Position numbers and translations under genes: made by a program
The notes under the pieces: generated by a model
What the model was told of the DNA's origin: nothing
Database searches by the model: none
Seen by the model: only the letters and a program-made list of their open reading frames with translations
In this document: positions 4,646 to 39,570 of the stretch, piece after piece
Position numbering within the stretch: position 1 is the first letter of the stretch
Layout of the letters: the number at the start of each line of letters is the position of its first letter
Assembly: GCA_035648795.1 (NCBI GenBank)
Contig: DASRKV010000032.1
Coordinates: 1-39,570, forward strand
DNA from: Opitutaceae bacterium
GTDB lineage: Bacteria > Verrucomicrobiota > Verrucomicrobiia > Opitutales > Opitutaceae
Direction: 5' to 3'
DNA: 39,570 nt

Positions 4646-4667
4646 GGTGCGCGAACGCACCTTGTTG
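4646..4667 (+). terminator. Candidate intrinsic terminator after the BON gene
   Basis: Stem GGTGCG / CGCACC with loop CGAA, followed by TTGTTG. It starts 21 nt after the stop codon. Confidence 0.4.
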
Positions 4668-4670
4668 ATG

Positions 4671-4698
4671 GGCAGACCTGGTGTTTTCCAGGTCTGCC
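4671..4698. terminator. Strong hairpin between convergent genes (possible bidirectional terminator; no clear U-tract)
   Basis: Perfect 11-bp stem GGCAGACCTGG / CCAGGTCTGCC with loop TGTTTT. Its 3' edge abuts the stop codon of the minus-strand ORF 4698..4952. Confidence 0.4.
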
Positions 4699-4952
4699 TA
4701 CATCTCGCCGTGGCGTTGTCCGGAGATGCGAGGCGGTGGTTGTGTGAGCAGCTCCCAATCGAGTTGGGCAAGGAACATCTGATGCCCGGGTTCAGGCCGG
4801 GAATAGCGGGTGAAGATCCACTCGCGGCCGCCGGTAGTCGGGAAGTGTACATCGAGCACCAGAAGAGCGCCGAGCTCCGGCACCCATTCTGCCCAAAGAA
4901 CTCGGCTGCGAAAGAGGGCGGATCTTCCCCCAGGCGCCTCCCGAAAATCCAT
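4698..4952 (-). CDS. Hypothetical small protein (84 aa)
   Basis: ORF MDFREAPGGRSALFRSRVLWAEWVPELGALLVLDVHFPTTGGREWIFTRYSRPEPGHQMFLAQLDWELL... has non-repetitive, protein-like composition. It ends at a strong hairpin shared with the convergent BON gene. I recognise no family. Confidence 0.35.
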   Translation of the reverse strand: MDFREAPGGRSALFRSRVLWAEWVPELGALLVLDVHFPTTGGREWIFTRYSRPEPGHQMFLAQLDWELLTQPPPRISGQRHGEM

Positions 4953-5028
4953 CTCCTAACCAGCAACGACTCGCGCCGTCCGACCACCAGAAAAAATCCG
5001 CTTTTGGCTCCCAGTAGCGCAGGTCAGG

Positions 5029-5569
5029 CTAACGCGTCGACCGGGGGCAGGCACCGCGCGCGGCCTGATCGATCGCCAGATCCTGCAGCAGGCTCTGGTA
5101 AGCGGGCGATTCGCGCAGGAGCCGTTCTCCGCCCCGGATCAACCGGTCCGGTCCGTTTCCCCGGGCCGGTGGAGACTCGTCGGCACGGCATTGAAGAAGG
5201 CGGGCTCGGCGGGATCCTGACTCGCCTGGAAATCCACGCGAATGAAGTGGATCTTCGGCTGGTCCCGGGTGCCGATCCGCCGCGCCGTCCGCTGCGTCTG
5301 CCAAAGGGGCAGACTGGATTCGACGAGCGCGACCGTTTCCCTGGTCGTGCGGTCGATCGACGTGTTGCCGAGTGCGGTCTGAAACCGGTACCCCGCCGCA
5401 GGGTCACTCCGGGCGAGCGGCACGTTGCGGGAGCATGGGCGCAACCGACGACCAGAATTGCCAGGAGCGCAAGGCCGGGCAGCCGGGCGGAAAACCGATC
5501 ACGGGTGGAGGGCAGGCAGGGGGACCGGAAAGCATCGGAGAGGAAGATGGCACGGATCTGTATCGGCAC
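5029..5569 (-). pseudogene. Probable lipoprotein gene broken by two frameshifts (or sequencing errors)
   Basis: Frame A (GTG at 5569) encodes a signal peptide plus lipobox: ...RFSARLPGLALLAILVVGC. The coding-looking sequence with G/C-rich third positions then continues in a second frame (5139..5444: ...PLARSDPAAGYRFQTALGNTSIDRTTRETVALVESSLPLWQTQ...IHFIRVDFQASQDPAEPAFFNAV...). It continues again in a third frame (5029..~5160: ...RLIRGGERLLRESPAYQSLLQDLAIDQAARG). The second shift coincides with a GGACCGGACCGG slip-prone repeat. Confidence 0.4.
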
Positions 5570-5701
5570 TCACCGACCGGCAATTCCTCGATTGACCGGA
5601 ATGCCGTCAAGGCACCTAGCGGCCGGTGGCGTCCGAATCGAGAGAAATAGTGGCACAAGAAAACTGGCCAGCGGGGCAGAATCGTTTTCAATGGACGGCA
5701 G

Positions 5702-7552
5702 ATGTCTGCTCCGGCACTCGATTTCCGCAACACGAACAGTCTCTGGTGCAGCGTCGTCGTGGAAACGCTGGCGCGGCTGGGACTGCGCCATGCGGTCGTC
5801 TGCCCCGGCTCGCGTTCGGCACCGCTGACCTTTGCGTTCGCGCGGCATCCGCAGATCGAGGCGATTTCGGTGCTCGACGAGCGCTCGGCGGCGTTTTTCG
5901 GCCTGGGGCTGGCCCGTCGGTATCGCCGGCCGACCGCTCTGGTCTGCACGTCCGGGACGGCGGCGGCCGGTTTTCTGCCCGCGATCATCGAGGCGCACGA
6001 GAGCGGGGTGCCGTTGCTGGTGTTCACGGCCGACCGGCCGCCCGAGATGCGCGAATGCGGATCGGGGCAGACGATCGACCAACAGAAACTCTATGGCGGC
6101 TACGTGAATTACTACCACGAACTGGCTGTGCCCGAGGCGAAGATCGAGCTGCTGGAGTACGCGCGCCAGAACACCGCGCACGCCTTCGAACGCACCCAGT
6201 ATCCGTTCGCCGGCCCGGTCCACCTGAACGCGCCATTCCGGGATCCGCTGCCGCCGGTGGAAGATGGACTGACGGAGAAGCTGCGGCCAAGACTCGATCC
6301 GGAAACGTTTTTTGCCCATGTGGAGCCGGGTCCGGGTAGCGCTGGTCTGGGACGCAACGATGAATTCCTATGTGGGGCGGGATCGCCGGATCCCGCCGTT
6401 TTGCCGGAGGAGGCGGGGTACGGCGACCCCGCCCTACAACGCCTTGGGCGGTACTCGCGCGGCGTGATCGTTGCCGGTCCGGCGCAACCGGCCGACCCGG
6501 GGGCGTACTGCGCAGCGGTGGCCCGGATCGCCGGGGCATTGGGCTGGCCGGTTCTGGCGGACGGCCTCAATCCGTTGCGCAATCACGCGGCGGAGAATCC
6601 GCTGCTGGTAATCGACTACAACGCCGTGTTGCGCTCGGCCGCCCTGGCGGCGCGATTGAAGCCCGATGCAGTCCTGGGGCTGGGCGACTGGCCCACGAGC
6701 AAGCAACTGCGCCAGTGGCTGCACGGCGCGGATGCTGAAACATGGATGATCGCGGCCGACAACCGGAACCATGATCCGCTCCACGGCCGGACGCGGCACC
6801 TGCGATGCGGGGTCGAGGCGCTGGCGGCGGACTTTCCCCGGGAGGGGCGCGCAGCAACTGTCTACGCGGCCGAATGGCGGCGCGCGGACCAGGCGGCGCG
6901 CGAGTTACTCGACCGTCGGCTCGACGAAGCGGCGGGTCCGCCCGGTGCGAACTCCGGCCCGTTTTTCGAAGGGTGTGTGAGCTGGCTGCTCTCCCGACAT
7001 CTGCCGCCGGACACGCCGATCTTCGTGGCCAGCAGCATGCCGGTGCGGGATGTGGAGTTTTTTTGGAGGCTCAACGATCGTGGCTGCCGGCCCTATTTCA
7101 ACCGCGGCGCCAACGGCATCGACGGCACGCTGTCGACCGCGCTCGGCGTGGCGCATGGCAACCAGCCGGCGGTGTTGTTGACCGGCGATCTGGCGCTGCT
7201 GCACGACACGAACGGATTCCTGCTGCGGCCGAAGTTGCGGGGGAGCCTGACGATTGTGCTGATCAACAACCATGGCGGCGGGATTTTCGAGATGCTGTCC
7301 GTGGCAAAATTTGATCCGCCCTTCGAGGAATTCTTCGCCACGCCGCAGGAGGTGGATTTCGGGCGGCTCTGCCCGGCGTACGGAGCCGAGCACGTGCTTG
7401 TCCGCGACCGGGCGCATTTGACCGCGCTGATCTCGGTGTTGCCGAAGGCCGGCCTCCGCGTGCTGGAAGTGCGGACGGAACGCAAGCGTGACGCGGCATT
7501 GCGCCGGGAGCTGTTCGGTGCGGCCGCGCAGGCGGCGGAAGCGGCGGTTTAA
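5702..7552 (+). CDS. menD: 2-succinyl-5-enolpyruvyl-6-hydroxy-3-cyclohexene-1-carboxylate (SEPHCHC) synthase
   Basis: 616 aa. The N-terminus NSLWCSVVVETLARLGLRHAVVCPGSRSAPLT...VCTSGTAAAGFLPAIIEAHESGVPLLVFTADRPPE is typical MenD. ThDP-binding block: LLTGDLALLHDTNG...VLINNHGGGIF. Confidence 0.93.
   Translation: MSAPALDFRNTNSLWCSVVVETLARLGLRHAVVCPGSRSAPLTFAFARHPQIEAISVLDERSAAFFGLGLARRYRRPTALVCTSGTAAAGFLPAIIEAHESGVPLLVFTADRPPEMRECGSGQTIDQQKLYGGYVNYYHELAVPEAKIELLEYARQNTAHAFERTQYPFAGPVHLNAPFRDPLPPVEDGLTEKLRPRLDPETFFAHVEPGPGSAGLGRNDEFLCGAGSPDPAVLPEEAGYGDPALQRLGRYSRGVIVAGPAQPADPGAYCAAVARIAGALGWPVLADGLNPLRNHAAENPLLVIDYNAVLRSAALAARLKPDAVLGLGDWPTSKQLRQWLHGADAETWMIAADNRNHDPLHGRTRHLRCGVEALAADFPREGRAATVYAAEWRRADQAARELLDRRLDEAAGPPGANSGPFFEGCVSWLLSRHLPPDTPIFVASSMPVRDVEFFWRLNDRGCRPYFNRGANGIDGTLSTALGVAHGNQPAVLLTGDLALLHDTNGFLLRPKLRGSLTIVLINNHGGGIFEMLSVAKFDPPFEEFFATPQEVDFGRLCPAYGAEHVLVRDRAHLTALISVLPKAGLRVLEVRTERKRDAALRRELFGAAAQAAEAAV
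6371..6438. repeat. Family-1 palindromic (REP/MITE-like) element copy, located inside the menD reading frame
   Basis: TGTGGGGCGGGATCGCCGGATCCCGCC...GGCGGGGTACGGCGACCCCGCCCTACA. The termini are inverted repeats and match the copies at 10017..10096 and 27777..27842. It is translated within MenD as CGAGSPDPAVLPEEAGYGDPALQ. Confidence 0.7.
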
Positions 7553-11454: not shown

Positions 11455-12396
11455 ATGAGTGGGCGCGGGCAGGCATCAGTCCACCGGCTGCTGGGTGCCC
11501 TGCTGGTGGAGGCGATGGTCGCGGGGGGCGCCAGCGCCGGGTCCGTCACGGTGGCCACGTACAATGTGGAAAACTACGTCGCCGCCGATCGCCGGGTCGA
11601 CGAGGTCTACCGGCCGGCGTACCCCAAGCCGGAGGCAGCCAAGACCGCCTTGCGCGCCGTCATCCGGGCGCTCGATGCGGACGTGCTGGCCCTGCAGGAG
11701 ATGGGGCCCGACGGTTACCTTGAGGAATTGCGGCGCGATCTGCGGGCGGAGGGTCTGGACTACCCCCACGTGGCCATGGCGGAGGCCGTCGACGCCGACC
11801 GGCATGTGGCGGTGCTGTCGCGGATCCCCTTTGGTCGCGTGCAAACGCATGCCGATCTGGATTTCCGCTATTTCGGCGGCCGGGCGAAGGTCAAGCGCGG
11901 CCTGCTCGAAGTCGCCGTGACCGTCGACGGGACGGAGCTGACGTTATTCGTGGTCCATCTGCGCAGCCGTTTCACCGAACGCCCCGACGACCCCGGCGCG
12001 GCCCTCTTTCGCGCCGGCGAGGCAGCGGCGGTCCGTGACCTCGTGCTGCGTCGTTTCCCGGATCCGGCGGCCGCGCGTTTCGTGGTCTTGGGCGACTGCA
12101 ACGACACCCGGAACAGCAAACCGCTGCGGCTGCTCACCCGGCGGGGGGGCACGATGATCGCGACATTGGCGAAGGCGGCCGACCCGAACGGTGAGACCTG
12201 GACCTACTACTATCACCGGGACGACACCTACTCGCGGGTCGACTATGTCCTCGTGTCGCCGGGGCTCGCGTCCGCGGTGGCCGCGGGGGGGGCCCGGGTC
12301 TACGACGGACCGGGGGTGCGCGAAGCCAGCGACCACCGGCCGGTGGTCGTCAGGCTGGAATTGCCTAGCGGGCCGAGACGGTCACCGGAACGGTGA
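11455..12396 (+). CDS. Endonuclease/exonuclease/phosphatase (EEP) family protein, probably secreted
   Basis: Signal-like N-terminus. EEP catalytic blocks: VATYNVEN, VLALQE, VVLGDCND, SDHRPVVV. Confidence 0.85.
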   Translation: MSGRGQASVHRLLGALLVEAMVAGGASAGSVTVATYNVENYVAADRRVDEVYRPAYPKPEAAKTALRAVIRALDADVLALQEMGPDGYLEELRRDLRAEGLDYPHVAMAEAVDADRHVAVLSRIPFGRVQTHADLDFRYFGGRAKVKRGLLEVAVTVDGTELTLFVVHLRSRFTERPDDPGAALFRAGEAAAVRDLVLRRFPDPAAARFVVLGDCNDTRNSKPLRLLTRRGGTMIATLAKAADPNGETWTYYYHRDDTYSRVDYVLVSPGLASAVAAGGARVYDGPGVREASDHRPVVVRLELPSGPRRSPER

Positions 12397-13279
12397 TTTC
12401 GCCCTGGCCAAAACCCTTCAAGTACAGGGCGCCTGCGCCCGGCTTGCCGCCCTGGACGTTCACCACGACGTTGGTCGCGCCTTCGGGGACGACGACTTCC
12501 GGCATGATCACGCTCTCGGGAATATCCGTGGTGACGTCCAGCAGGAGTCCACCTTGCGGCGCGGCCGTGGGAATGGTGAACGCCACGGTCTGGCTTTCGC
12601 CGCTGCGGAGCATCAGCGAGGTGGGCGAAACGCTCGCGCCGGTCGCGTCGGCGCGGAACGTTCCGACCGACAGGGTGCTGCCGCCGCCGCTGAGGGCCAC
12701 ATTGTAGATGCGATCGGGCTCGACGGCGGGAACGAAAAAGCTGAGCGAGCTGGGAGATTCGTAAACCGTCCGCGCCGGGGCCGTGTCGAGATAGACGACA
12801 TCCTGCGGAGTGAAGCCGCGGCCGACCACGCTCACCCGCGCGCCGACCGGGCCGCGGTTGGCCTCGAGCGGCAGGGCATAGCGTCGCTCGACCTTGAAAT
12901 GATGGACCTCCGTGTACATCTCGTCTGATTTCGCCGGGGTATCCGAATTGAAACGATAGCGAACCAGGAAATAATACGCCGCGTCATCGCGCCCCGGAGG
13001 AAGCGGATAGTCGTATTCGTACACGTCGTTCGTCAGCGCGCTCTTCTTCATCGGCTGGTCCTGCCCGTCGATGATGGCCCTGACCTGCAGGCTCGAGCGG
13101 TCCAGAGTGCGCGAGGTCGGCGTCACCCGCGCCGTGATCGTGTACAGTTGCGAAGGATTCTCGCGCAACACGTCGGGCGTGAGATTGGTGATCGTGAGAT
13201 TGCAGCCCGCGAGCAGGAGCAGGGCGGTGGCGGCGGCGAAGCCGGGGAATATTCTTCTCGCTTGAGAGAGACGTGTCAT
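12365..13279 (-). CDS. Lipoprotein with IPT/TIG-like Ig-fold domain(s)
   Basis: From internal ATG 13279: MTRLSQARRIFPGFAAATALLLLAGC (signal peptide plus lipobox). IPT/TIG-like segment: RGPVGARVSVVGRGFTPQDVVYLDTAPARTVYESPSSLSFFVPAVEP. The upstream 48 codons of the listed ORF overlap hemW and were trimmed. Confidence 0.75.
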   Translation of the reverse strand: MTRLSQARRIFPGFAAATALLLLAGCNLTITNLTPDVLRENPSQLYTITARVTPTSRTLDRSSLQVRAIIDGQDQPMKKSALTNDVYEYDYPLPPGRDDAAYYFLVRYRFNSDTPAKSDEMYTEVHHFKVERRYALPLEANRGPVGARVSVVGRGFTPQDVVYLDTAPARTVYESPSSLSFFVPAVEPDRIYNVALSGGGSTLSVGTFRADATGASVSPTSLMLRSGESQTVAFTIPTAAPQGGLLLDVTTDIPESVIMPEVVVPEGATNVVVNVQGGKPGAGALYLKGFGQGEITVPVTVSAR

Positions 13280-13341
13280 GTGAGTTGGATTTCGAAAGGG
13301 AAGTCGGCAGTTGCTACGGCAGCCCAACAGCGGCTCTTGTA

Positions 13342-14511
13342 ATGCTCGAACTCGCTCCAGCGCAAGCAAAAGCTCAGGGCCCACCGCCACTGGGCCTCTA
13401 TGTCCATGTGCCTTTCTGTGCAACCACCTGTGATTATTGCGCGTTTTACCAGACCCAGCCGACAGCGGAAACCGTGCGTGGGTTCCTTGCCGGGGTTGCG
13501 CGCGAGGCCGATCTGGTGGTGTGGAACCGCCCGGCGGACACCGTCTTCTGGGGCGGCGGCACTCCCGGAATGCTGGCGCCGCGCGCCCTGACGGAGCTGG
13601 GTGAAGTCGTCTTGCGCCAGGGTGGCGGCCGTCCGGGGGAGTGGAGTGTCGAGATGGCGCCTGCCTCGGTCACGCCGCAACGATTGGCGGCGTTGAAAGA
13701 CCTGGGGGTGACCCGTATTTCGATGGGCGTGCAGAGCTTCCAACCGGCATTGCTGGAGGCCTTGGGCCGCCAGCACACCCGGCAGCAGGCGTTGCGGGCC
13801 TATGCGTGGGTGCGCGCCGCGGGTTTTGCCAGCGTCAACTTCGACCTGATCTTCGCGATTCCGGGCCAGACCCTTGAGGCCTGGCGCGCGGACCTGGATG
13901 CGGCGATGGAATTCCAGCCCGACCACATCTCGACCTATTGCCTGACCTTTGAGGAGGACACCGCGCTCTTCGTGAAGCTCTCGCAGGGTCGCGTGCGCCT
14001 CGACGTGGAAAAGGAGGCGGCGTTCTACACCGAGGCCTGGGAGCGGCTCGAAGCGGCGGGTTATGCGCAGTATGAAATCTCGAATTTCGCGCGCGCCGGC
14101 CACCAATGCCGCCACAATCTGAACACCTGGCGCATGGCGGAATGGGTCGGGCTCGGGCCGTCGGCGGCTTCGCAATACGCCGGCTGGCGGAGTTCCAACG
14201 TGGCCGACCTGGCGCAGTGGCGGACGGACCTCGCGGCGGGCCGCCGGGCGCTGACAGAACCGGTGGCATTGACGCCGCGAATCCTGGCCGAGGACAGCCT
14301 GATCTTCGGCCTGCGCATGAACGAAGGCGTGGCGCTGCCGGCGCTGCGGACGCGGTTTCCCGAGGCGCCCTGGGAGAAAGTCGACGCCCTGGCGGAACGG
14401 TTGGTGCAAGAAGGATTTGCGGTAATCGAGGGCGGCGGGCTGCGGCTCACGTTGCGGGGACGCCTCGTGGCGGACGCGGTGGGCGGCCAGATCATGGACG
14501 CGTTCGATTAG
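13342..14511 (+). CDS. hemW: Radical SAM haem chaperone HemW (HemN-like, oxygen-independent coproporphyrinogen oxidase family)
   Basis: LGLYVHVPFCATTCDYCAFY (CxxxCxxC radical SAM cluster), GGGTPGML, and the HemN C-terminal domain. Start taken at ATG 13342 (MLELAPAQ...) rather than 13273. Confidence 0.9.
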   Translation: MLELAPAQAKAQGPPPLGLYVHVPFCATTCDYCAFYQTQPTAETVRGFLAGVAREADLVVWNRPADTVFWGGGTPGMLAPRALTELGEVVLRQGGGRPGEWSVEMAPASVTPQRLAALKDLGVTRISMGVQSFQPALLEALGRQHTRQQALRAYAWVRAAGFASVNFDLIFAIPGQTLEAWRADLDAAMEFQPDHISTYCLTFEEDTALFVKLSQGRVRLDVEKEAAFYTEAWERLEAAGYAQYEISNFARAGHQCRHNLNTWRMAEWVGLGPSAASQYAGWRSSNVADLAQWRTDLAAGRRALTEPVALTPRILAEDSLIFGLRMNEGVALPALRTRFPEAPWEKVDALAERLVQEGFAVIEGGGLRLTLRGRLVADAVGGQIMDAFD

Positions 14512-19511: not shown

Positions 19512-19849
19512 GCGTGGAGGCGCCGGCTGGCGTGCCGCGATGAAACCAGAATCTGGTGGCTACGAAGAGGCGCCATCAACCACGAAAGGAGACGGCATGC
19601 TCTTTGCGCGTTCTCGGGTCTTTTTGGGGCGGCTCAAAAAACCCGTGGCGCCGTCTCGTCCGTCAACAATTCGGGCGCCGATTTCACCAGCTAAAATCCA
19701 CTCGACTTTAGCCTGTGGACGACAGAATCCTTCGGAGATTGCTTCAAGGATGAATGTCGCCCGCTGTTTCGCAATGCCTCGGGGCTTGCCCCGAGGAACT
19801 TTACCTCTATCCGGCCACAATCCATTGCCTCAGACCCCAATTAAAGATC

Positions 19850-20290
19850 ATGGCAATCTATCGAGATACTCCCTACGGCAACGCGCAGTTCCTGGTGGAA
19901 ATCGATAACATCAACAAGCCCGGCTTCCTCGTCGCCCAGCTGCCGGACTTGATCCTCGATCAAACCGAGTACCGCGAAGGCGGTGATGTTTTGCTCCAGA
20001 GCACTCCGGTCGCCAAACGTCCGCATTTTGGGACGCTGGTCCTCAAACGCGGTTTTCATGGCGGCTTGGATCTCTACAATTGGTGGAAGGATGCCGCCAC
20101 CGGGCAGCCGAATGCGAAGCGCAATGGGACGATCACGCTGCAGACTGAAGACCGGACTGCCAATGTTGCAGCGTGGCACATTACCGGCGCCCTGCCCGTG
20201 CGGTACGGGTTTTCTCCGCTCGACGGCCAGGACGGCGGAACTCTGATCGAAATGATTGAGATCGCCTGCCAGAATGTGGCGATGGAATAG
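19850..20290 (+). CDS. Phage tail-tube-like protein (T4 gp19 / contractile-injection-system tube family), orphan copy
   Basis: From internal ATG 19850: MAIYRDTPYGNAQFLVEIDNINKPGFLVAQLPDLILDQTEYREGGDV...FGTLVLKRGFHGGLDLYNWW...ITLQTEDRTANVAAWHITGALPVRYGFSPLDGQDGGTLIEMIEIACQNVAME. It matches the conserved pattern of the 'conserved hypothetical phage tail region protein' family (FxVEIDG..., EYREGG, LxLKRG, WxxxNAxPVKY, AIExLEL). Confidence 0.85.
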   Translation: MAIYRDTPYGNAQFLVEIDNINKPGFLVAQLPDLILDQTEYREGGDVLLQSTPVAKRPHFGTLVLKRGFHGGLDLYNWWKDAATGQPNAKRNGTITLQTEDRTANVAAWHITGALPVRYGFSPLDGQDGGTLIEMIEIACQNVAME

Positions 20291-20942
20291 CGACGGACGA
20301 CCGGCGTTGCCGCGACCACCGGTGCCGACGGGCGCGTTCCGCGCACCGCCGCCAGTCCCGGTCGCGCCCGCGGGCTCTCTCCTAAACGCCAGCGACATCC
20401 AGCGGCGGCGGGAAGAGCGTTATGCGCTGGCCCGCAGTCTGCTTGGGCGTTGCGACCGCCGGCGGGCTTCGATCGGGTTGCAGGCCGCGGGCTTGGTCGC
20501 GGCCAACGTTGGGCTGCTTGTGGCGCTGGTCATTTTGCTCTACGTGGTGGTCGGCAGCGAATCGATCGGCGGCCTCGTAGGGGTTGTGGTGCGTTTTTGG
20601 CTGGCCGGGAACGGATTGTTTATCCTCGCATCGGTGGTGGCCGCGATCTGGGCGATGCGCGACTTCGCACGGGCACGACCCGCGGTCTCCGGTCAGGCAT
20701 CCGAGGCGCTCTTCTTTGATCTCGATGAGACCGCCGAGAACTTTGAATCGGCTGCGCAGTTTGACGCCGCATTCCGATCGGCGCTGAACGAGGAGATGAT
20801 CCGCCGTGCCTCCGCCGCGTTGTGGCGGGCGACGCGAGGCGTGCACCGCCAGCGCCGCGCATTGCGCTGGGCGTCACAGATCCTCCTCCTGGCGCTTGCC
20901 GTGACCATCGGCTCGGTCGTTCTGGTGCTGCTGTGTGCGTAG
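20256..20942 (+). CDS. Hypothetical multi-TM membrane protein (3-4 helices, C-terminal anchor)
   Basis: Protein-like codon usage. Hydrophobic helices: IGLQAAGLVAANVGLLVALVILLYVVV, LVGVVVRFWLAGNGLFILASVVAAIWAM, SQILLLALAVTIGSVVLVLL, with a charged helical segment between them. The start is uncertain: ATG 20256 or 20274 (overlapping the tube gene) or GTG 20322. Confidence 0.6.
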   Translation: MRSPARMWRWNSDGRPALPRPPVPTGAFRAPPPVPVAPAGSLLNASDIQRRREERYALARSLLGRCDRRRASIGLQAAGLVAANVGLLVALVILLYVVVGSESIGGLVGVVVRFWLAGNGLFILASVVAAIWAMRDFARARPAVSGQASEALFFDLDETAENFESAAQFDAAFRSALNEEMIRRASAALWRATRGVHRQRRALRWASQILLLALAVTIGSVVLVLLCA

Positions 20943-30683: not shown

Positions 30684-30900
30684 GGGAGTGTTCCGGCTAT
30701 GAGCATTAGGCCAACGATAGGCAATTTGGCCGCGGGCTCAGGGCCAAACGACGGATCGAAGCCTGGCTAATCACGCTGCACAGTGCCATCACTAAGGCTG
30801 ATGCCACGGGACTGGTGCTCCGACTGGATAAAGGCCCCCAGCCGGCCCCATGCTGTTGTCGGAGCAAGCTGGTTCGCGATTACCGAGGGAAGATCGCTTG

Positions 30901-31035
30901 TCCCTCGACGGTTTCGACAAGCTCACCGCGAGCATGCTCGGGACCCTGACCCGTTCGACGGTGCTCAGGGTCATCCTGAGCGACTCGACTGAGCTCGTCG
31001 AAGTCCTGTCGAAGGATGAGCCTGTCGAACGGGCA
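30901..31035. repeat. Complex palindromic element in the sucA upstream region
   Basis: Imperfect 23-25-nt inverted arms (CCCTCGACGGTTTCGACAAGCTC ... GAGCTCGTCGAAGTCCTGTCGAAGG) enclose nested hairpins (GACCCTGA/TCAGGGTC, CTCAGG/CCTGAG). Conceptual translation gives FDKL... and ...LSKDE strings, as in widely dispersed bacterial REP-type repeats. Confidence 0.45.
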
Positions 31036-31092
31036 AGCAGGCTCCTACACCGGTCATTAAATGAGGGAGACCATGGTTCTTTTACTTGCTGG

Positions 31093-32253
31093 CTACGGCT
31101 CCACGATGACCGGCAGTCCCACCCAGGCCAGACCCAGGAGTGTCCGCGCGTCCCAGTTGGCGAGCCGGAAGCAGCCGTGGGATTCGGTGCGGCCCACGAG
31201 TTCCGGGGTAGGGGTGCCATGGATACCGTAGCCGGGGCGGTCGAGCCCGATCCACGCCACGCCGACCGGGTTGTTGGGACCCGGCGGAAGGACCAGTTTG
31301 CGCCCCAGTTCCCGGGCCTCCGCGGACTCGGAAAACACGTCGGGATCAAACGTGTAATCAGGATTGGGAATCACTACGGTCACATGCAGTTCGCCCGCCG
31401 GCCGCTTGGCGACCTCGCGCGCGATGCTGACCGGAAAGTGCGCGAGCAGGTTGCCGGCGTCATCCCGGACTTCCAGAATGTGATCCTCCAGACTGATGTG
31501 GAGCAGGGCCGCCTTGCCCGGCAGCGCAACGGGCCCCACCGCGGGGGCCAGCACGGTCGTCGCGGGCGTGATGGCGGTCCAGTCGAGCGCCGGGTTGAGT
31601 TGCTGGAGGAGCGCGGGATGGGCATGCGTCCGCTCCGCCGCCATCTCGAGGGCATTTTCATAAGCGAGGGCGGTCTGCTGGGATTTGCCGAGCCAGGTCG
31701 GGCTGAGCGGCTGCAGACCGGCCAGATCCCCGGTCGTGAGCGATATCCGGGCCAGGGGCGGAGCGGAGAGAACCAGGCGGCCGCGAGTCTCCGCGTCAAG
31801 CTGACCGGTCGGCGGAAGTCCGGCGCTCTCCTGAAAGGCCCGCAGGGCGGCGATCGATTGGGAGCCGGCGACCCCGTCGATCGGTCCGCAGGAGAATGCC
31901 CGGCGCGCGAGCTCAATCTGCGCCTCCAGCCATGTCGCGACTGGACGCGGATACGCCTCGACCGGGATCGCAACGGCCGGGTCTTCGCGCGGAAGCTGAG
32001 CGGGCTTCGAGGAAGGTGGGGCCGGGGCGGGGGAAGGCGGCTTTGGGCGCGCCGCGGTCCCTGTCACCGGCACCGCTTCAACGATCTTGACGGCTGTGTC
32101 GGGGCTGGATCGCGCGGAGTGGCGGGAGACGAACTGGTACTTCAGCTCGCCGCCGATCGCGAGAAAGAGGACGAACAAAATGATCAGCCCTTTGTGGTCG
32201 GATTTGCCGGCGGCGCTCATGGGCGGAGTTGGTTGCGGCATCTGGGCTAACAT
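31093..32253 (-). CDS. L,D-transpeptidase (YkuD domain) with peptidoglycan-binding domain
   Basis: N-terminal TM anchor and a Pro-rich spacer. PG-binding-1-like segment: GPIDGVAGSQSIAALRAFQESAGLPPTGQLD. Catalytic block: GYGIHGTP...SHGCFRLANWD. Confidence 0.9.
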   Translation of the reverse strand: MLAQMPQPTPPMSAAGKSDHKGLIILFVLFLAIGGELKYQFVSRHSARSSPDTAVKIVEAVPVTGTAARPKPPSPAPAPPSSKPAQLPREDPAVAIPVEAYPRPVATWLEAQIELARRAFSCGPIDGVAGSQSIAALRAFQESAGLPPTGQLDAETRGRLVLSAPPLARISLTTGDLAGLQPLSPTWLGKSQQTALAYENALEMAAERTHAHPALLQQLNPALDWTAITPATTVLAPAVGPVALPGKAALLHISLEDHILEVRDDAGNLLAHFPVSIAREVAKRPAGELHVTVVIPNPDYTFDPDVFSESAEARELGRKLVLPPGPNNPVGVAWIGLDRPGYGIHGTPTPELVGRTESHGCFRLANWDARTLLGLAWVGLPVIVEP

Positions 32254-37092: not shown

Positions 37093-39570
37093 ATGCGAAC
37101 CGACGCTAACGTTCCTCCTCTCACGCGGGCGCCTCCGGCCACCTTCGCCCCGCAATTGCAGACGATTGAAACCGCCGCCATCGCGGCGCGACGGTGCTTG
37201 ATCGCGGAGGATGCGCCCGAGGTGAAATTCGCGGATGGGGCGGTCGGCCTGGCGCTGTCGGGCGGAGGTATCCGGAGCGCGACGTTCAATCTCGGACTGC
37301 TCCAGGGCCTGGCACGTTGGCGGTTCCTGCGGCTCGTCGATTACCTGTCGACGGTTTCGGGCGGCGGCTACATCGGCGGATTTCTCGGCCGGTTTTATAC
37401 TCGGTTTGTGAACCGGCCGCAGGGGGCCGCCGATCTGGTGGAAGCGCGTCTCGCCGATCCGGCGTCGCCGGAGATCCGCTGGCTCCGGCAAAACGGCAAT
37501 TACCTCGCCCCGGGCGGCGTCGGCGACACGTGTTACAACGCGGCGTCTTTCCTCCGCAACTTCCTCACGGTGCATGCGGTGTTGGGGGTCGGCCTGTTCG
37601 CCGTTCTCGGCATGGCCAACCTGCTGCGCTTCGAATTCTTTCCCTGGCTGACCGAGGCGTGGTGCCGGATGATTCCGATGGACCCGGGCGGCGGCATGAG
37701 TCTGGCCATGGCGGATGAATTGCCGATCAACTACCTGTTACGCGCGGGGTGGGGATTGCTCTGGAGTCCGTGGTTCATCCTCGTGGAAGCCGTCATTCTG
37801 GTGGGCGGCCTGCCGCTGGCGCTGGCTTATTGGCTCGTGTCGCCGGATCAGCCGCAGGCCTTTCAACCCGCGGCGCTCAAGGCCACGCTGGTGCTCTGTG
37901 CCGCGCTGTTCGCCGTGGGGGCGGCGCCGGCCGACGCGCTGCGCTGGGCGCCGATGGTGGTCGCCGTTTCGATGCTGCTGAGCTTCGTTTATGTGGAAGC
38001 AGCGTGGCGGCGGGTGCGCCGCCGGTGTCCCGGCGGACTTCTGCAACCGGTCACGCGCCGCCAGGTGCGGGGCCTGCTCACCGCCTGGCTGGGTGCGGCA
38101 TTTTTCTGGGGGGTGATCGCGGTGGGCTTTGCTGCGCTCGATGCGGCCGGGTACGCATTGTACGGATGGGTCGACCGGCGGGAGGATTTTGCCCGCGTAT
38201 TGGGCCTGATCGGATCGGGACTCGCCGCGCTCTACCCCGTTCTGCGCTGGGGCACGGGCCGGCTGGCGCAAGCAGCCAGAACCCAGGGCAAGGGAAAAGG
38301 GGGCGGATGGTTCAATCTCCTGGTTCATCCTGCGGTGTTGCCATTGGCCGTCGCGGTACCGCCGTTGCTGCTGGTGAGCCTGGCCAGCCACGTGTTGTTT
38401 GCCCGCGGCGAGCACGGGGCGGCTGCGGTGGCGACGACGGGTGTTGCGCTCCTCCTCTCGGTCCTGCTCGGTCGGCAGGACGCGCGGCCGTTCGTCAACC
38501 GCTCGTCGTTCCAAAGCATTTATGCCGCCAGAATCTCCCGGGCCTACCTCGGAGCCTCGAACCATTTTCGCCTGGGCGGCGTCGAAGGACGGGATGTGAC
38601 GACCTCCGATCCGAACGACGACATCTGGCTGAATGGCTACCAGCCCGAAAACGCGGGCGGTCCGGTGCATCTGATCAATGTCTGCGTGGATGAGACGATC
38701 GAGTATTCCTCGCAGCGGTCGTTTCGGGACCGGCACGGCGAGAACATGGCGGTCGGACCCGCGGGCGTCAGCATCGGTGCGACATGGCATGCCACCTGGA
38801 GGCGCGCCCAGGGCCCGCGAGGCCCGGGCGGTGAGGCGGTGGCCGCGGACCCGGAAGATCTCCCGCATCCCCTGCGCGGGCCGCAACCGGGTCCGGTCAA
38901 AACAGAGCCGCTCTACCTGAGCGACTGGCTCGCGATCTCCGGGGTGGCGGCCAACCCGGGGCGCGGTCAGGGGGTGAAACCCGGATCAAGTCTGTTGTTT
39001 GGGATCGGCAACTTGCGTGCCGGCTATTGGTGGAACAGCGGTCTCGACGAATACGAACGGCCGGGCTTGGGGCGACCGACGCTGGGCTCGGCGCTGCGGA
39101 AACTTCCCGAACGGCTCTTTCGGACCCAGTTCTTTTTTCTGCGGGAGTTCACCGCGTCGTTCACCGGACCGTGGAGGCGCTATTGGCATCTGTCGGATGG
39201 AGGCAACTTCGAAAACCTGGGCGTCTACGAACTGATCCGGCGCCGGGTGCCATACATCATCGCGTCGGATGCCACTTACGACCCGAAAGGTCAGCAGGCC
39301 GATCTGGCCAACCTGTTGCGCAAGGTGCGGATCGATTTCGACGCGGAGGTGCAGTTCCTTTCCGCCGACGAAATCGCGGCGCTCCCGGTGCCTGACCAGG
39401 TCAAAACACGGCTGGGAACACCAACGGACCTGCGCGCGGCCGCCGATGGGAACGGCCGGTCCCGGAAACACGCGTCCCTTGCCCGCATCTTCTATGATGG
39501 CCGGAGCGAACCGGGCGGTGTGCTCCTGTATCTGCGCTCGGGACTGACCGGCGACGAGCCGGAAGACGTG
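37093..39570 (+). CDS. Partial CDS (826 codons; continues past the right edge): patatin/cPLA2-type phospholipase with a polytopic membrane insertion
   Basis: Not in the ORF track (no stop in the window); no other + ORF is listed in this frame. ATG 37093 lies 14 nt after the GMC stop. Oxyanion-hole motif LSGGGIRS (37261..37275). Nucleophile elbow STVSGGGY (Ser codon 37357..37359). SxxxP block ISGVAANPG. Catalytic Asp motif HLSDGGNFENLG (Asp codon 39196..39198). About 8 hydrophobic helices lie between the Ser and the Asp. Confidence 0.85.
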   Translation, partial: MRTDANVPPLTRAPPATFAPQLQTIETAAIAARRCLIAEDAPEVKFADGAVGLALSGGGIRSATFNLGLLQGLARWRFLRLVDYLSTVSGGGYIGGFLGRFYTRFVNRPQGAADLVEARLADPASPEIRWLRQNGNYLAPGGVGDTCYNAASFLRNFLTVHAVLGVGLFAVLGMANLLRFEFFPWLTEAWCRMIPMDPGGGMSLAMADELPINYLLRAGWGLLWSPWFILVEAVILVGGLPLALAYWLVSPDQPQAFQPAALKATLVLCAALFAVGAAPADALRWAPMVVAVSMLLSFVYVEAAWRRVRRRCPGGLLQPVTRRQVRGLLTAWLGAAFFWGVIAVGFAALDAAGYALYGWVDRREDFARVLGLIGSGLAALYPVLRWGTGRLAQAARTQGKGKGGGWFNLLVHPAVLPLAVAVPPLLLVSLASHVLFARGEHGAAAVATTGVALLLSVLLGRQDARPFVNRSSFQSIYAARISRAYLGASNHFRLGGVEGRDVTTSDPNDDIWLNGYQPENAGGPVHLINVCVDETIEYSSQRSFRDRHGENMAVGPAGVSIGATWHATWRRAQGPRGPGGEAVAADPEDLPHPLRGPQPGPVKTEPLYLSDWLAISGVAANPGRGQGVKPGSSLLFGIGNLRAGYWWNSGLDEYERPGLGRPTLGSALRKLPERLFRTQFFFLREFTASFTGPWRRYWHLSDGGNFENLGVYELIRRRVPYIIASDATYDPKGQQADLANLLRKVRIDFDAEVQFLSADEIAALPVPDQVKTRLGTPTDLRAAADGNGRSRKHASLARIFYDGRSEPGGVLLYLRSGLTGDEPEDV

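Follow-up and report, generated by a model that had tools for sequence, protein, structure and literature searches.

We report here a pair of overlapping genes in a 39,570-nt stretch of an Opitutaceae genome (Verrucomicrobiota; GenBank assembly GCA_035648795.1, contig DASRKV010000032.1, positions 1 to 39,570; the whole stretch is referred to as the window). The first gene (19850..20290, forward strand) encodes a tube protein of the contractile injection system (CIS) type; the second (20274..20942, forward strand) encodes a membrane protein with three transmembrane (TM) helices, referred to as the 3TM protein. Comparisons of sequences and profiles suggest that an effector of the PycTM family is here coupled to a tube protein and that the pair stands apart from both Pycsar and CIS. 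We believe that it is probably a new two-protein device for membrane killing or gating, and not a dead prophage. It appears to be previously undescribed: no description of a tube-PycTM pairing was found in the literature searched, and PADLOC contains no model for the tube partner. The two genes form one co-inherited operon. We put forward tentatively, as somewhat short of an even chance, that their products cooperate at the inner membrane, where the tube protein would gate or trigger a pore made of six 3TM subunits; abortive infection is the probable setting.

The tube gene (146 codons, ATG start) is full length and lies outside any tail or CIS cluster. A preliminary description of the window, made from its letters and open reading frames (ORFs), had assigned the 146-aa product to the tube family. 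This assignment agrees with the profile matches: PF06841 (Phage_T4_gp19) is matched with E=2.4e-20 (73.2 bits against a cut-off of 28.2), residues 12-143 aligning to profile positions 3-133 of 134, and TIGR02241 is matched with 71.9 bits, above its cut-off of 62.4. A PHROG tail-tube family is matched as well, and the NCBIfam CIS1/CIS5 tube models give weak matches. The closest solved relative by sequence is All3324, the inner tube of the thylakoid-anchored CIS (tCIS) of Anabaena (E=4e-17); the further best-matching solved tubes are those of AlgoCIS, the Photorhabdus virulence cassette (PVC) and the antifeeding prophage (AFP). The AlphaFold2 (AF2) model, with a predicted local distance difference test (pLDDT) score of 73.6, and its Foldseek matches (Afp5, Pvc1, AlgoCIS, Pvc5, All3324 and Afp1; E=5e-7 to 2e-5; TM-score to CIS tubes about 0.55-0.62) support the tube fold, i.e., a beta-sandwich, a helix and an extended hairpin. 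Confidence of the model is low in the hairpin (residues 31-60); the long hairpin of tube proteins is ordered only once tubes assemble, and low model confidence there is usual. The EYREG motif of the hairpin and both termini are conserved, and conservation peaks at the N-terminus and in the SPLD..DG loop.

The tube protein has no match among 50,697 phage genomes (INPHARED). Together with the matches to solved CIS tubes, this places it with the injection-system type and not with the phage type. Its plasmid matches (PLSDB) are all at most 32% identical and are annotated as phage tail proteins.

The 3TM gene is open from TTG 20256 in its longest form (20256-20942). Its start is uncertain. ATG 20274 is the likeliest one; from there the two genes overlap by 17 nt and the protein has 222 aa. 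We favour it because it is the start used by a database protein of the same length and 100% identity (P0001). The other candidates are TTG 20256, TTG ~20307 and GTG ~20322. In the alignment of homologues, the Pro/Arg-rich N-terminal 36 aa are not conserved, and the conserved core starts at 20382 (LNASDIQ...). The preliminary description had mentioned an ORF with three or four TM helices that overlaps or abuts the tube gene; the ORF is real, but the TM helices are three, not four.

In the AF2 model of the core (pLDDT 90.5; helices 3-58, 65-92, 114-133 and 136-185 of the core), a cytoplasmic N-terminal helix continues into TM1; TM2 comes next, and after a pair of short helices the chain finishes with a long helix whose end forms TM3. 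The conserved part of the N-terminal helix lies at 20388..20465 (forward strand, as are the following features; AF2 helix 3-58 of the core) and carries the motif R-[FY]-x-L-A-R-x-L-L-x-R-x-D-R-L/R; it is conserved across 24 tube-linked partners and in the wider family, with D25 nearly invariant. TM1 (20466..20555, about residues 65-94 of the 222-aa protein) is seen both in the hydropathy profile and as a continuous AF2 helix. TM2 (20574..20657, about residues 101-128) and the C-terminal TM3 (20868..20939, about residues 199-222) are likewise placed by AF2 and hydropathy, the latter giving three TM segments in all. Between TM2 and TM3 lies a conserved cytoplasmic helical region (20658..20867) with the motifs LFFD...T/A...F, F-R-S-A-L-x-E-E-M and A-L-W-R-A. 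Conservation sits mainly in the cytoplasmic helices and not in the TM helices. The model consists of helices only, with no beta-sheet and no cyclic nucleotide (cNMP)-binding domain (CNBD).

The likeness of this protein to PycTM, surmised earlier from its layout, is upheld by profile comparisons. The PADLOC PycTM model PDLC02363 matches it with E=9.2e-5 over profile positions 31-153 of 154. PF18967 is carried by four of its six homologues (P0002 and P0005-P0007, at 40-57% identity); for the partner at locus L014, the PF18967 score (24.2 bits) is below the cut-off of 27.2. An hhalign comparison of the orthologue alignment with a group of PF18967 proteins spanned 160 columns, at 97.7% probability and E=2e-12. 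At the level of profiles, the 3TM protein is homologous to PycTM (PF18967) as a divergent branch. An exhaustive HMMER search with the orthologue alignment collected 122 clusters (50% identity) at E<1e-3, mostly of 175-200 aa, and 22 of the 118 family members scanned reach PF18967. All motifs shared throughout the family lie on the cytoplasmic side: R-x-D-x-L-R (in the N-terminal helix), LFF..(D/E)T..F, F..F, E-x-M and AL.ELW. Searches of the PDB with Foldseek and hidden Markov models (HMMs) gave only chance helical matches and no solved relative of the 3TM protein. Among the longer family members no tube-3TM fusion was found; their extra domains are a HAD hydrolase or a transposase helix-turn-helix.

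PycTM and PucTM are membrane-disrupting effectors of abortive infection (bioRxiv 10.64898/2026.08.12.744502; PMC11224242, where the PycTM pore model is summarised). The preprint names the effector family "pJV1-spdB3 3TM" and describes EcPucTM as a six-fold cylinder with a central channel of ~15 Å lined by TM2 and with an abortive-infection-like phenotype (bioRxiv 10.64898/2026.08.12.744502). By topology rather than by alignment, TM2 of the window protein would be equivalent to the channel-lining TM2 of EcPucTM. The Pycsar/Pucsar TM effectors share with the window protein the homology at the profile level, the size class of about 180-220 aa and the layout (N-terminal cytoplasmic helix, TM hairpin, cytoplasmic helices and C-terminal TM). 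They differ in their partners, since the window pair has no adjacent class III nucleotide cyclase (PycC/PucC) and has a CIS tube as the invariant partner instead; and EcPucTM has a beta-sheet appendage and a CNBD (bioRxiv 10.64898/2026.08.12.744502), whereas the window protein is all-helical in the AF2 model.

In the lineage of the window the pair keeps a single position. The homologous contigs show the constant order lipA-lipB-mgtC(-) followed by tube(+)-3TM(+)-lysS(+) (loci L001, L002, L005, L006 and L008-L012); these syntenic relatives are probably diverged Verrucomicrobiota of the Opitutaceae. The two genes of the pair often overlap, by 17 nt in the window and by 4 nt in L008. The tube orthologues are 52-80% identical, and every one of them is exactly 146 aa long. 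Across the syntenic loci, amino acid identity is 82-92% for lysS, 74-89% for mgtC, 66-84% for the tube and 43-64% for the 3TM protein. The corresponding ratios of nonsynonymous to synonymous divergence (dN/dS, by the Nei-Gojobori method) are 0.10-0.19, 0.15-0.25, 0.09-0.39 and 0.39-0.60; the ratios are rough, since among the more deeply diverged pairs dS approaches saturation. Both genes of the pair are under purifying selection.

The pair is also found far outside this lineage. A scan of GTDB, with one genome per species and the tube subfamily alignment as the query, yielded tubes of about 50% identity in three further phyla, in metagenome-assembled genomes of Thermodesulfobacteriota, NC10 and Chloroflexia. 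On the same strand, each of these tubes is followed by an ORF of 191-221 aa that shares the architecture and the motifs of the 3TM protein; the GenBank labels of the two are only "phage tail protein" and "hypothetical protein". Tube and TM gene pairs do recur without other tail genes. The same genomes scanned with the 3TM alignment gave no matches, the degenerate pattern being too weak. A metagenome scan added 80 further tube loci. All loci were searched with HMMs made from the tube and the 3TM proteins, and a locus was considered informative if its tube scored 149 bits or more against the subfamily HMM (which corresponds to about 40-99% identity with the tube of the window) and if the downstream sequence available was 340 nt or longer. 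A same-strand match to the 3TM-family HMM immediately follows the tube in 27 of the 29 informative loci; in the remaining two (L056 and L026), the downstream ORF has the same layout of an N-terminal helix and a TM pair, and that of L056 is related to the 3TM family by hhalign (E=2.7e-5). Judged by these matches and layouts, every informative close relative of the tube (29/29) has a 3TM partner. Identities of the tube and of the 3TM protein correlate with r=0.93 over 24 unique complete pairs, a value reached in 0 of 2000 permutations of the Mantel test; such co-divergence implies that the two genes travelled together. Synteny, selection and recurrence as a pair in other phyla lend good support to the earlier notion of a two-gene module.

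The same data bear on the other possibility named in the preliminary description, the last trace of a decaying prophage or extracellular CIS (eCIS) cluster; the membrane ORF would then be a chance neighbour. Composition could be taken in its favour. The GC content of the tube gene is 58.0% against 64-67% (about 65%) in the neighbours, and the GC content at third codon positions (GC3) is lower in both genes (tube 0.71, 3TM 0.78) than in most neighbours (0.82-0.87). The earlier remark that both genes are less GC-rich is therefore correct for the tube gene but not for the 3TM gene (66-68%), and GSDH (GC3 0.75) and hemN (0.79) are as low in GC3 as the 3TM gene. Two short direct repeats also bracket the pair: 19492-19509/21126-21143 (18 nt, 83%) and 19542-19556/21060-21074 (15 nt, 87%). 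They are imperfect and nested, not collinear, and are probably chance matches. A decaying remnant would hardly be expected to keep the exact tube length of 146 aa in all orthologues, a dN/dS well under 1 in both genes, identical synteny in diverged relatives, and the same pair in four phyla with the partner in all 29 informative loci. The conservation data effectively refute this explanation, and we leave it next to no probability. Between the window and its nearest relative (L001, 7493-8672), dS is 1.24 for the tube and 0.61 for the 3TM gene, compared with 0.39 for lysS and 0.45 for mgtC; the raised dS and the low GC3 of the pair could reflect weak codon bias or a separate history, e.g., recombination.

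The tube does stand alone, as first described. In the 39.6-kb window, Pfam scans, in which a few ORFs remain without a match, revealed no sheath, baseplate, spike, tape measure or AAA+ ATPase. BLASTP of all ORFs of five ordinary eCIS loci against the window retrieved the tube alone, plus an unrelated match to dxs. Likewise, the local neighbourhoods covered, which reach 10-20 kb from the pairs and come from four phyla or more, contain no other CIS gene. Since the apparatus is absent near the pair, the pair itself is not a CIS. The tubes of eCIS and cytoplasmic CIS that we compared (Afp1/Afp5, Pvc1/Pvc5, Alg1 of AlgoCIS, All3324 of the Anabaena tCIS and Cis1 of Streptomyces) share with the window tube the Pfam/TIGRFAM family, the fold and the length (142-149 aa versus 146 aa); the window tube differs from them in lying outside a cluster of sheath, baseplate, spike and ATPase genes and in always having a PycTM-like gene directly downstream. 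By sequence identity the paired tubes form a branch of their own, distinct from the eCIS-like ones: tubes with at most 36% identity to the window tube occur in tandem, as in ordinary eCIS clusters. The pair is clearly not confined to complete eCIS or prophage clusters elsewhere; such confinement is what the preliminary description had named as contrary to its proposal.

A related explanation is that the pair serves as an accessory module for a CIS encoded elsewhere in the genome, comparable to orphan hcp-effector islands or to the membrane adaptors known from cytoplasmic CIS. The tube, as an orphan paralogue, would join or prime that CIS, and the 3TM protein would be an anchor, a firing adaptor or pore-forming cargo. 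We consider this unlikely, both in its general form and in these details. The tube does speak for it: it is of the CIS type, with the Anabaena tCIS, AlgoCIS, PVC and AFP as nearest solved relatives and no phage matches, and its full length is preserved, including the hairpin region and both termini. Orphan Hcp proteins from type VI secretion systems (T6SS) with a cognate effector downstream are well known, and the layout is analogous, with a lone gene of a tube family followed by a potentially membrane-active protein. The analogy is limited to the layout: the window tube belongs to PF06841 and not to Hcp (PF05638), no T6SS or CIS apparatus is nearby, no immunity-like gene accompanies the pair, and the downstream product is an integral 3TM protein from a family known for effectors acting on the cell's own membrane. 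Besides the lack of CIS genes around the pairs, the separate branch of the paired tubes (at least ~40% identity within it versus at most 36% for the tandem eCIS-like tubes) argues against an accessory role, and the N-terminal extension of the 3TM protein, a possible loading signal, is not conserved.

Other uses of tube domains do exist in the lineage, which could also be said in favour of a CIS accessory. In a sister Opitutaceae clade, a gene located just after lysS and without a homologue in the window (L010 11677-14046, reverse strand; L005 10471-12843; L011 11356-13728) encodes a protein of 790 aa in which a signal peptide and two tube-like PF06841 domains (E=3e-14) are combined with a long linker rich in Pro, Thr and Ser and with repeated domains at the C-terminus. 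It is unusual for tube domains to make up a secreted protein.

There is a second kind of orphan tube. Below 149 bits, the scans contain "class B" tubes of 150 aa, which are found alone or after an unrelated conserved ORF (L040 2296-2757, L053 303-755, L054 2648-3100, L058 4304-4756, L063 10001-10453, L067 2353-2835 and L061 533-985). They share 37-43% identity with the window tube and 47-56% with the first (lower-coordinate) tube gene of tandem eCIS loci; they have no 3TM partner, and the genes around them have housekeeping roles (ABC transporter, hbd, rhomboid). In some cases a conserved ORF of ~150 aa without a Pfam match lies directly upstream (L040 1808-2296, L061 36-488 and L067 1835-2269), with the motif RPDVIVDFxFDDGxFFIxVxNIxDxPA...VSVKFD, which may, by its position, be a different tube partner.

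The pair is not Pycsar either, since no cyclase is consistently linked to it. No nucleotide cyclase was found in the window or beside the pairs in the loci of Opitutaceae, NC10 and Chloroflexia and on the examined metagenome contigs L038, L049 and L056, which are unclassified. The sole cyclase beside any pair is a CHASE2-class III cyclase-TPR protein in Thermodesulfobacteriota (L013 5082-7226, reverse strand), whose gene is divergent and lies about 300 nt upstream of the pair; being unique among the pairs, it may be a coincidence. A small CNBD gene adjacent to the pair in L049 is explained by lineage synteny, since L015 has this gene too, at 9 kb from its pair. A consistent cNMP link was therefore rejected. 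With no linked cyclase, activation of the window protein by a cyclic nucleotide seems unlikely. The lack of a CNBD or beta appendage together with the lack of a consistently linked cyclase would call for some other activator.

PF18967 proteins at a greater distance (about 25% identity) have neither a tube nor a cyclase beside them and occur with other partners: GAPS4 genes (PDDEXK_GAPS4 and GAPS4b_N), DUF5343 with pP_pnuc_1, or a pair of unknown proteins of 307 and 163 aa (L098 4716-7540, L102 2990-5175 and L099 4869-7034; also L100 and L101). The 163-aa partner was considered as a tube homologue and is not tube-like by hhalign. Defence effectors are often combined with different partners; the variety seen here suggests that the 3TM module is combined in this manner too, and the gene neighbourhoods suggest other cyclase-free uses of the PF18967 effector family.

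What the tube could do for such an effector can be proposed as follows. Tube proteins of the PF06841 family assemble into six-fold rings. The tube protein of the pair would assemble into a C6 ring, which would sit coaxially against the conserved cytoplasmic side of a 3TM hexamer and take the place of the cyclase/cNMP signal of Pycsar. The ring, whose gene comes first in the operon, might cap the pore and hold it closed in the manner of an antitoxin; and/or the pore might open when tail-assembly components of an infecting contractile-tailed phage (the candidates are the tube initiator, the sheath and the terminator) engage or titrate the ring. The outcome would be membrane depolarisation and abortive infection. 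This ring-on-pore arrangement fits the gene order, with the tube gene first and overlapping its partner, as well as the distribution of conservation, which falls in the cytoplasmic helices of the 3TM protein and in the N-terminus and SPLD..DG loop of the tube. It is supported by the six-fold symmetry of both the tube rings and the EcPucTM hexamer, and by the modularity of the effector, whose distant PF18967 relatives are found beside other partners. The order of the genes and their overlap are consistent with a toxin-antitoxin-like order, with the cap first and the membrane toxin second.

It is tempting to go one step further and to regard the pair as a minimal immune machine, in which a host-domesticated C6 tube ring on a hexameric PycTM-type pore senses assembling phage tails as their structural mimic. 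The mimic ring would co-assemble with, or be titrated by, the tube initiator, sheath or terminator of the phage, and the pore would open. We consider this version possible, if doubtful. A conceptual likeness exists in DSR2-type defence, where a tail tube protein switches on an abortive-infection effector. There, the tube is the phage's own, and the sensor/effector is a SIR2 NADase; in the window pair, the tube is host-encoded and the effector is a membrane protein, and the two systems have no sequence relationship.

Several points weigh against the gated-pore interpretation of the pair. The contact between the tube and the 3TM protein, its stoichiometry and the phage trigger are all inferred. 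The window 3TM protein itself has no Pfam match at E<=1, PF18967 included, so that its PycTM membership rests on the PADLOC model, the orthologues and the profile-profile comparison. The family-wide cytoplasmic motifs are kept, and it is possible, to judge from them, that the ligand is a small molecule supplied by an unlinked enzyme. No close relative of either gene was found in IMG/VR, INPHARED phages or PLSDB plasmids, hence there is no sign of mobility. Contrary to the location in defence islands considered in the preliminary description, the pair loci are housekeeping neighbourhoods; in other lineages the neighbours, which differ from one lineage to the next, are purA/purB, serS, URO-D, isoamylase, FemAB-like and glutaminyl cyclase genes. 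In the lineage of the window, the pair has kept one housekeeping position through ~82-92% lysS identity; such stability is not typical of defence genes and could equally belong to a physiological role.

The alternative that follows from such a role is a non-immune membrane device, where the tube ring and the 3TM hexamer form a regulated channel or conduit. It could serve for permeabilisation under stress or programmed cell death, for the release of contents or vesicles, or for the passage of macromolecules. In addition to the stable, vertically inherited position across a diverged clade, the housekeeping neighbours in other phyla and the lack of mobile-element or defence-island signatures, the dN/dS of the tube, which is near that of mgtC and lysS, agrees with this alternative. 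The pJV1 SpdB3 proteins, after which the 3TM family is named, have a role in the intramycelial spread of plasmid DNA. Spd proteins are part of a DNA-translocation complex (PMC4447253). On the other side, the 3TM protein evolves fast (43-61% identity at 85-92% for lysS, dN/dS 0.4-0.6), which is more typical of conflict genes, and the only experimentally characterised relatives are anti-phage effectors. The spread of the pair over distant phyla at about 50% tube identity is patchy as well, which implies its horizontal transfer. On balance, we place the non-immune device, whichever of these uses it might have, on the improbable side.

The remaining content of the window is ordinary. Pfam scans of its large ORFs detected housekeeping families only: dxs, a TPP enzyme, BON, an M48 protease, HemN, M23, lipA, lipB, MgtC/DUF4010, lysS, GSDH-cytochrome c, lpdA, sucB, sucA and a GMC oxidoreductase. 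Four large ORFs have no Pfam match (30850-32247 and 4647-5825 on the forward strand, 37741-38886 and 12368-13423 on the reverse strand), and none of them is similar to ORFs of the examined eCIS loci. The divergent mgtC/DUF4010 (-) and tube (+) genes are separated by an intergenic spacer of 338 nt (19512..19849, GC 56.8%), where the promoter of the pair presumably lies; a search of it for sigma-70-like sites gave none that was convincing. The equivalent spacer in the orthologous loci varies from about 120 to 440 nt, and therefore contains no conserved ORF. Scans of the locus for promoters, terminators and repeats gave nothing above chance, and the window has no Rfam or tRNA matches.

The observation has a general side. 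A "phage tail protein" annotation outside a prophage need not denote debris; in this case such annotations point to a conserved cellular module that is present in four phyla or more. If the six-on-six complex is real, it would represent a new control of a pore effector, exerted by a protein ring taken from phage-tail-like machines instead of a second-messenger cyclase, and the pair would be a simple two-gene system in which the gating of PycTM-type pores is tractable. If the ring indeed senses phage tails, this would be the first membrane effector for which a virion-like structural protein provides the sensor or gate, and the pair would constitute a cyclase-free branch of Pycsar effectors. Even the less exciting outcomes would provide a role for a recurrent unannotated gene pair.

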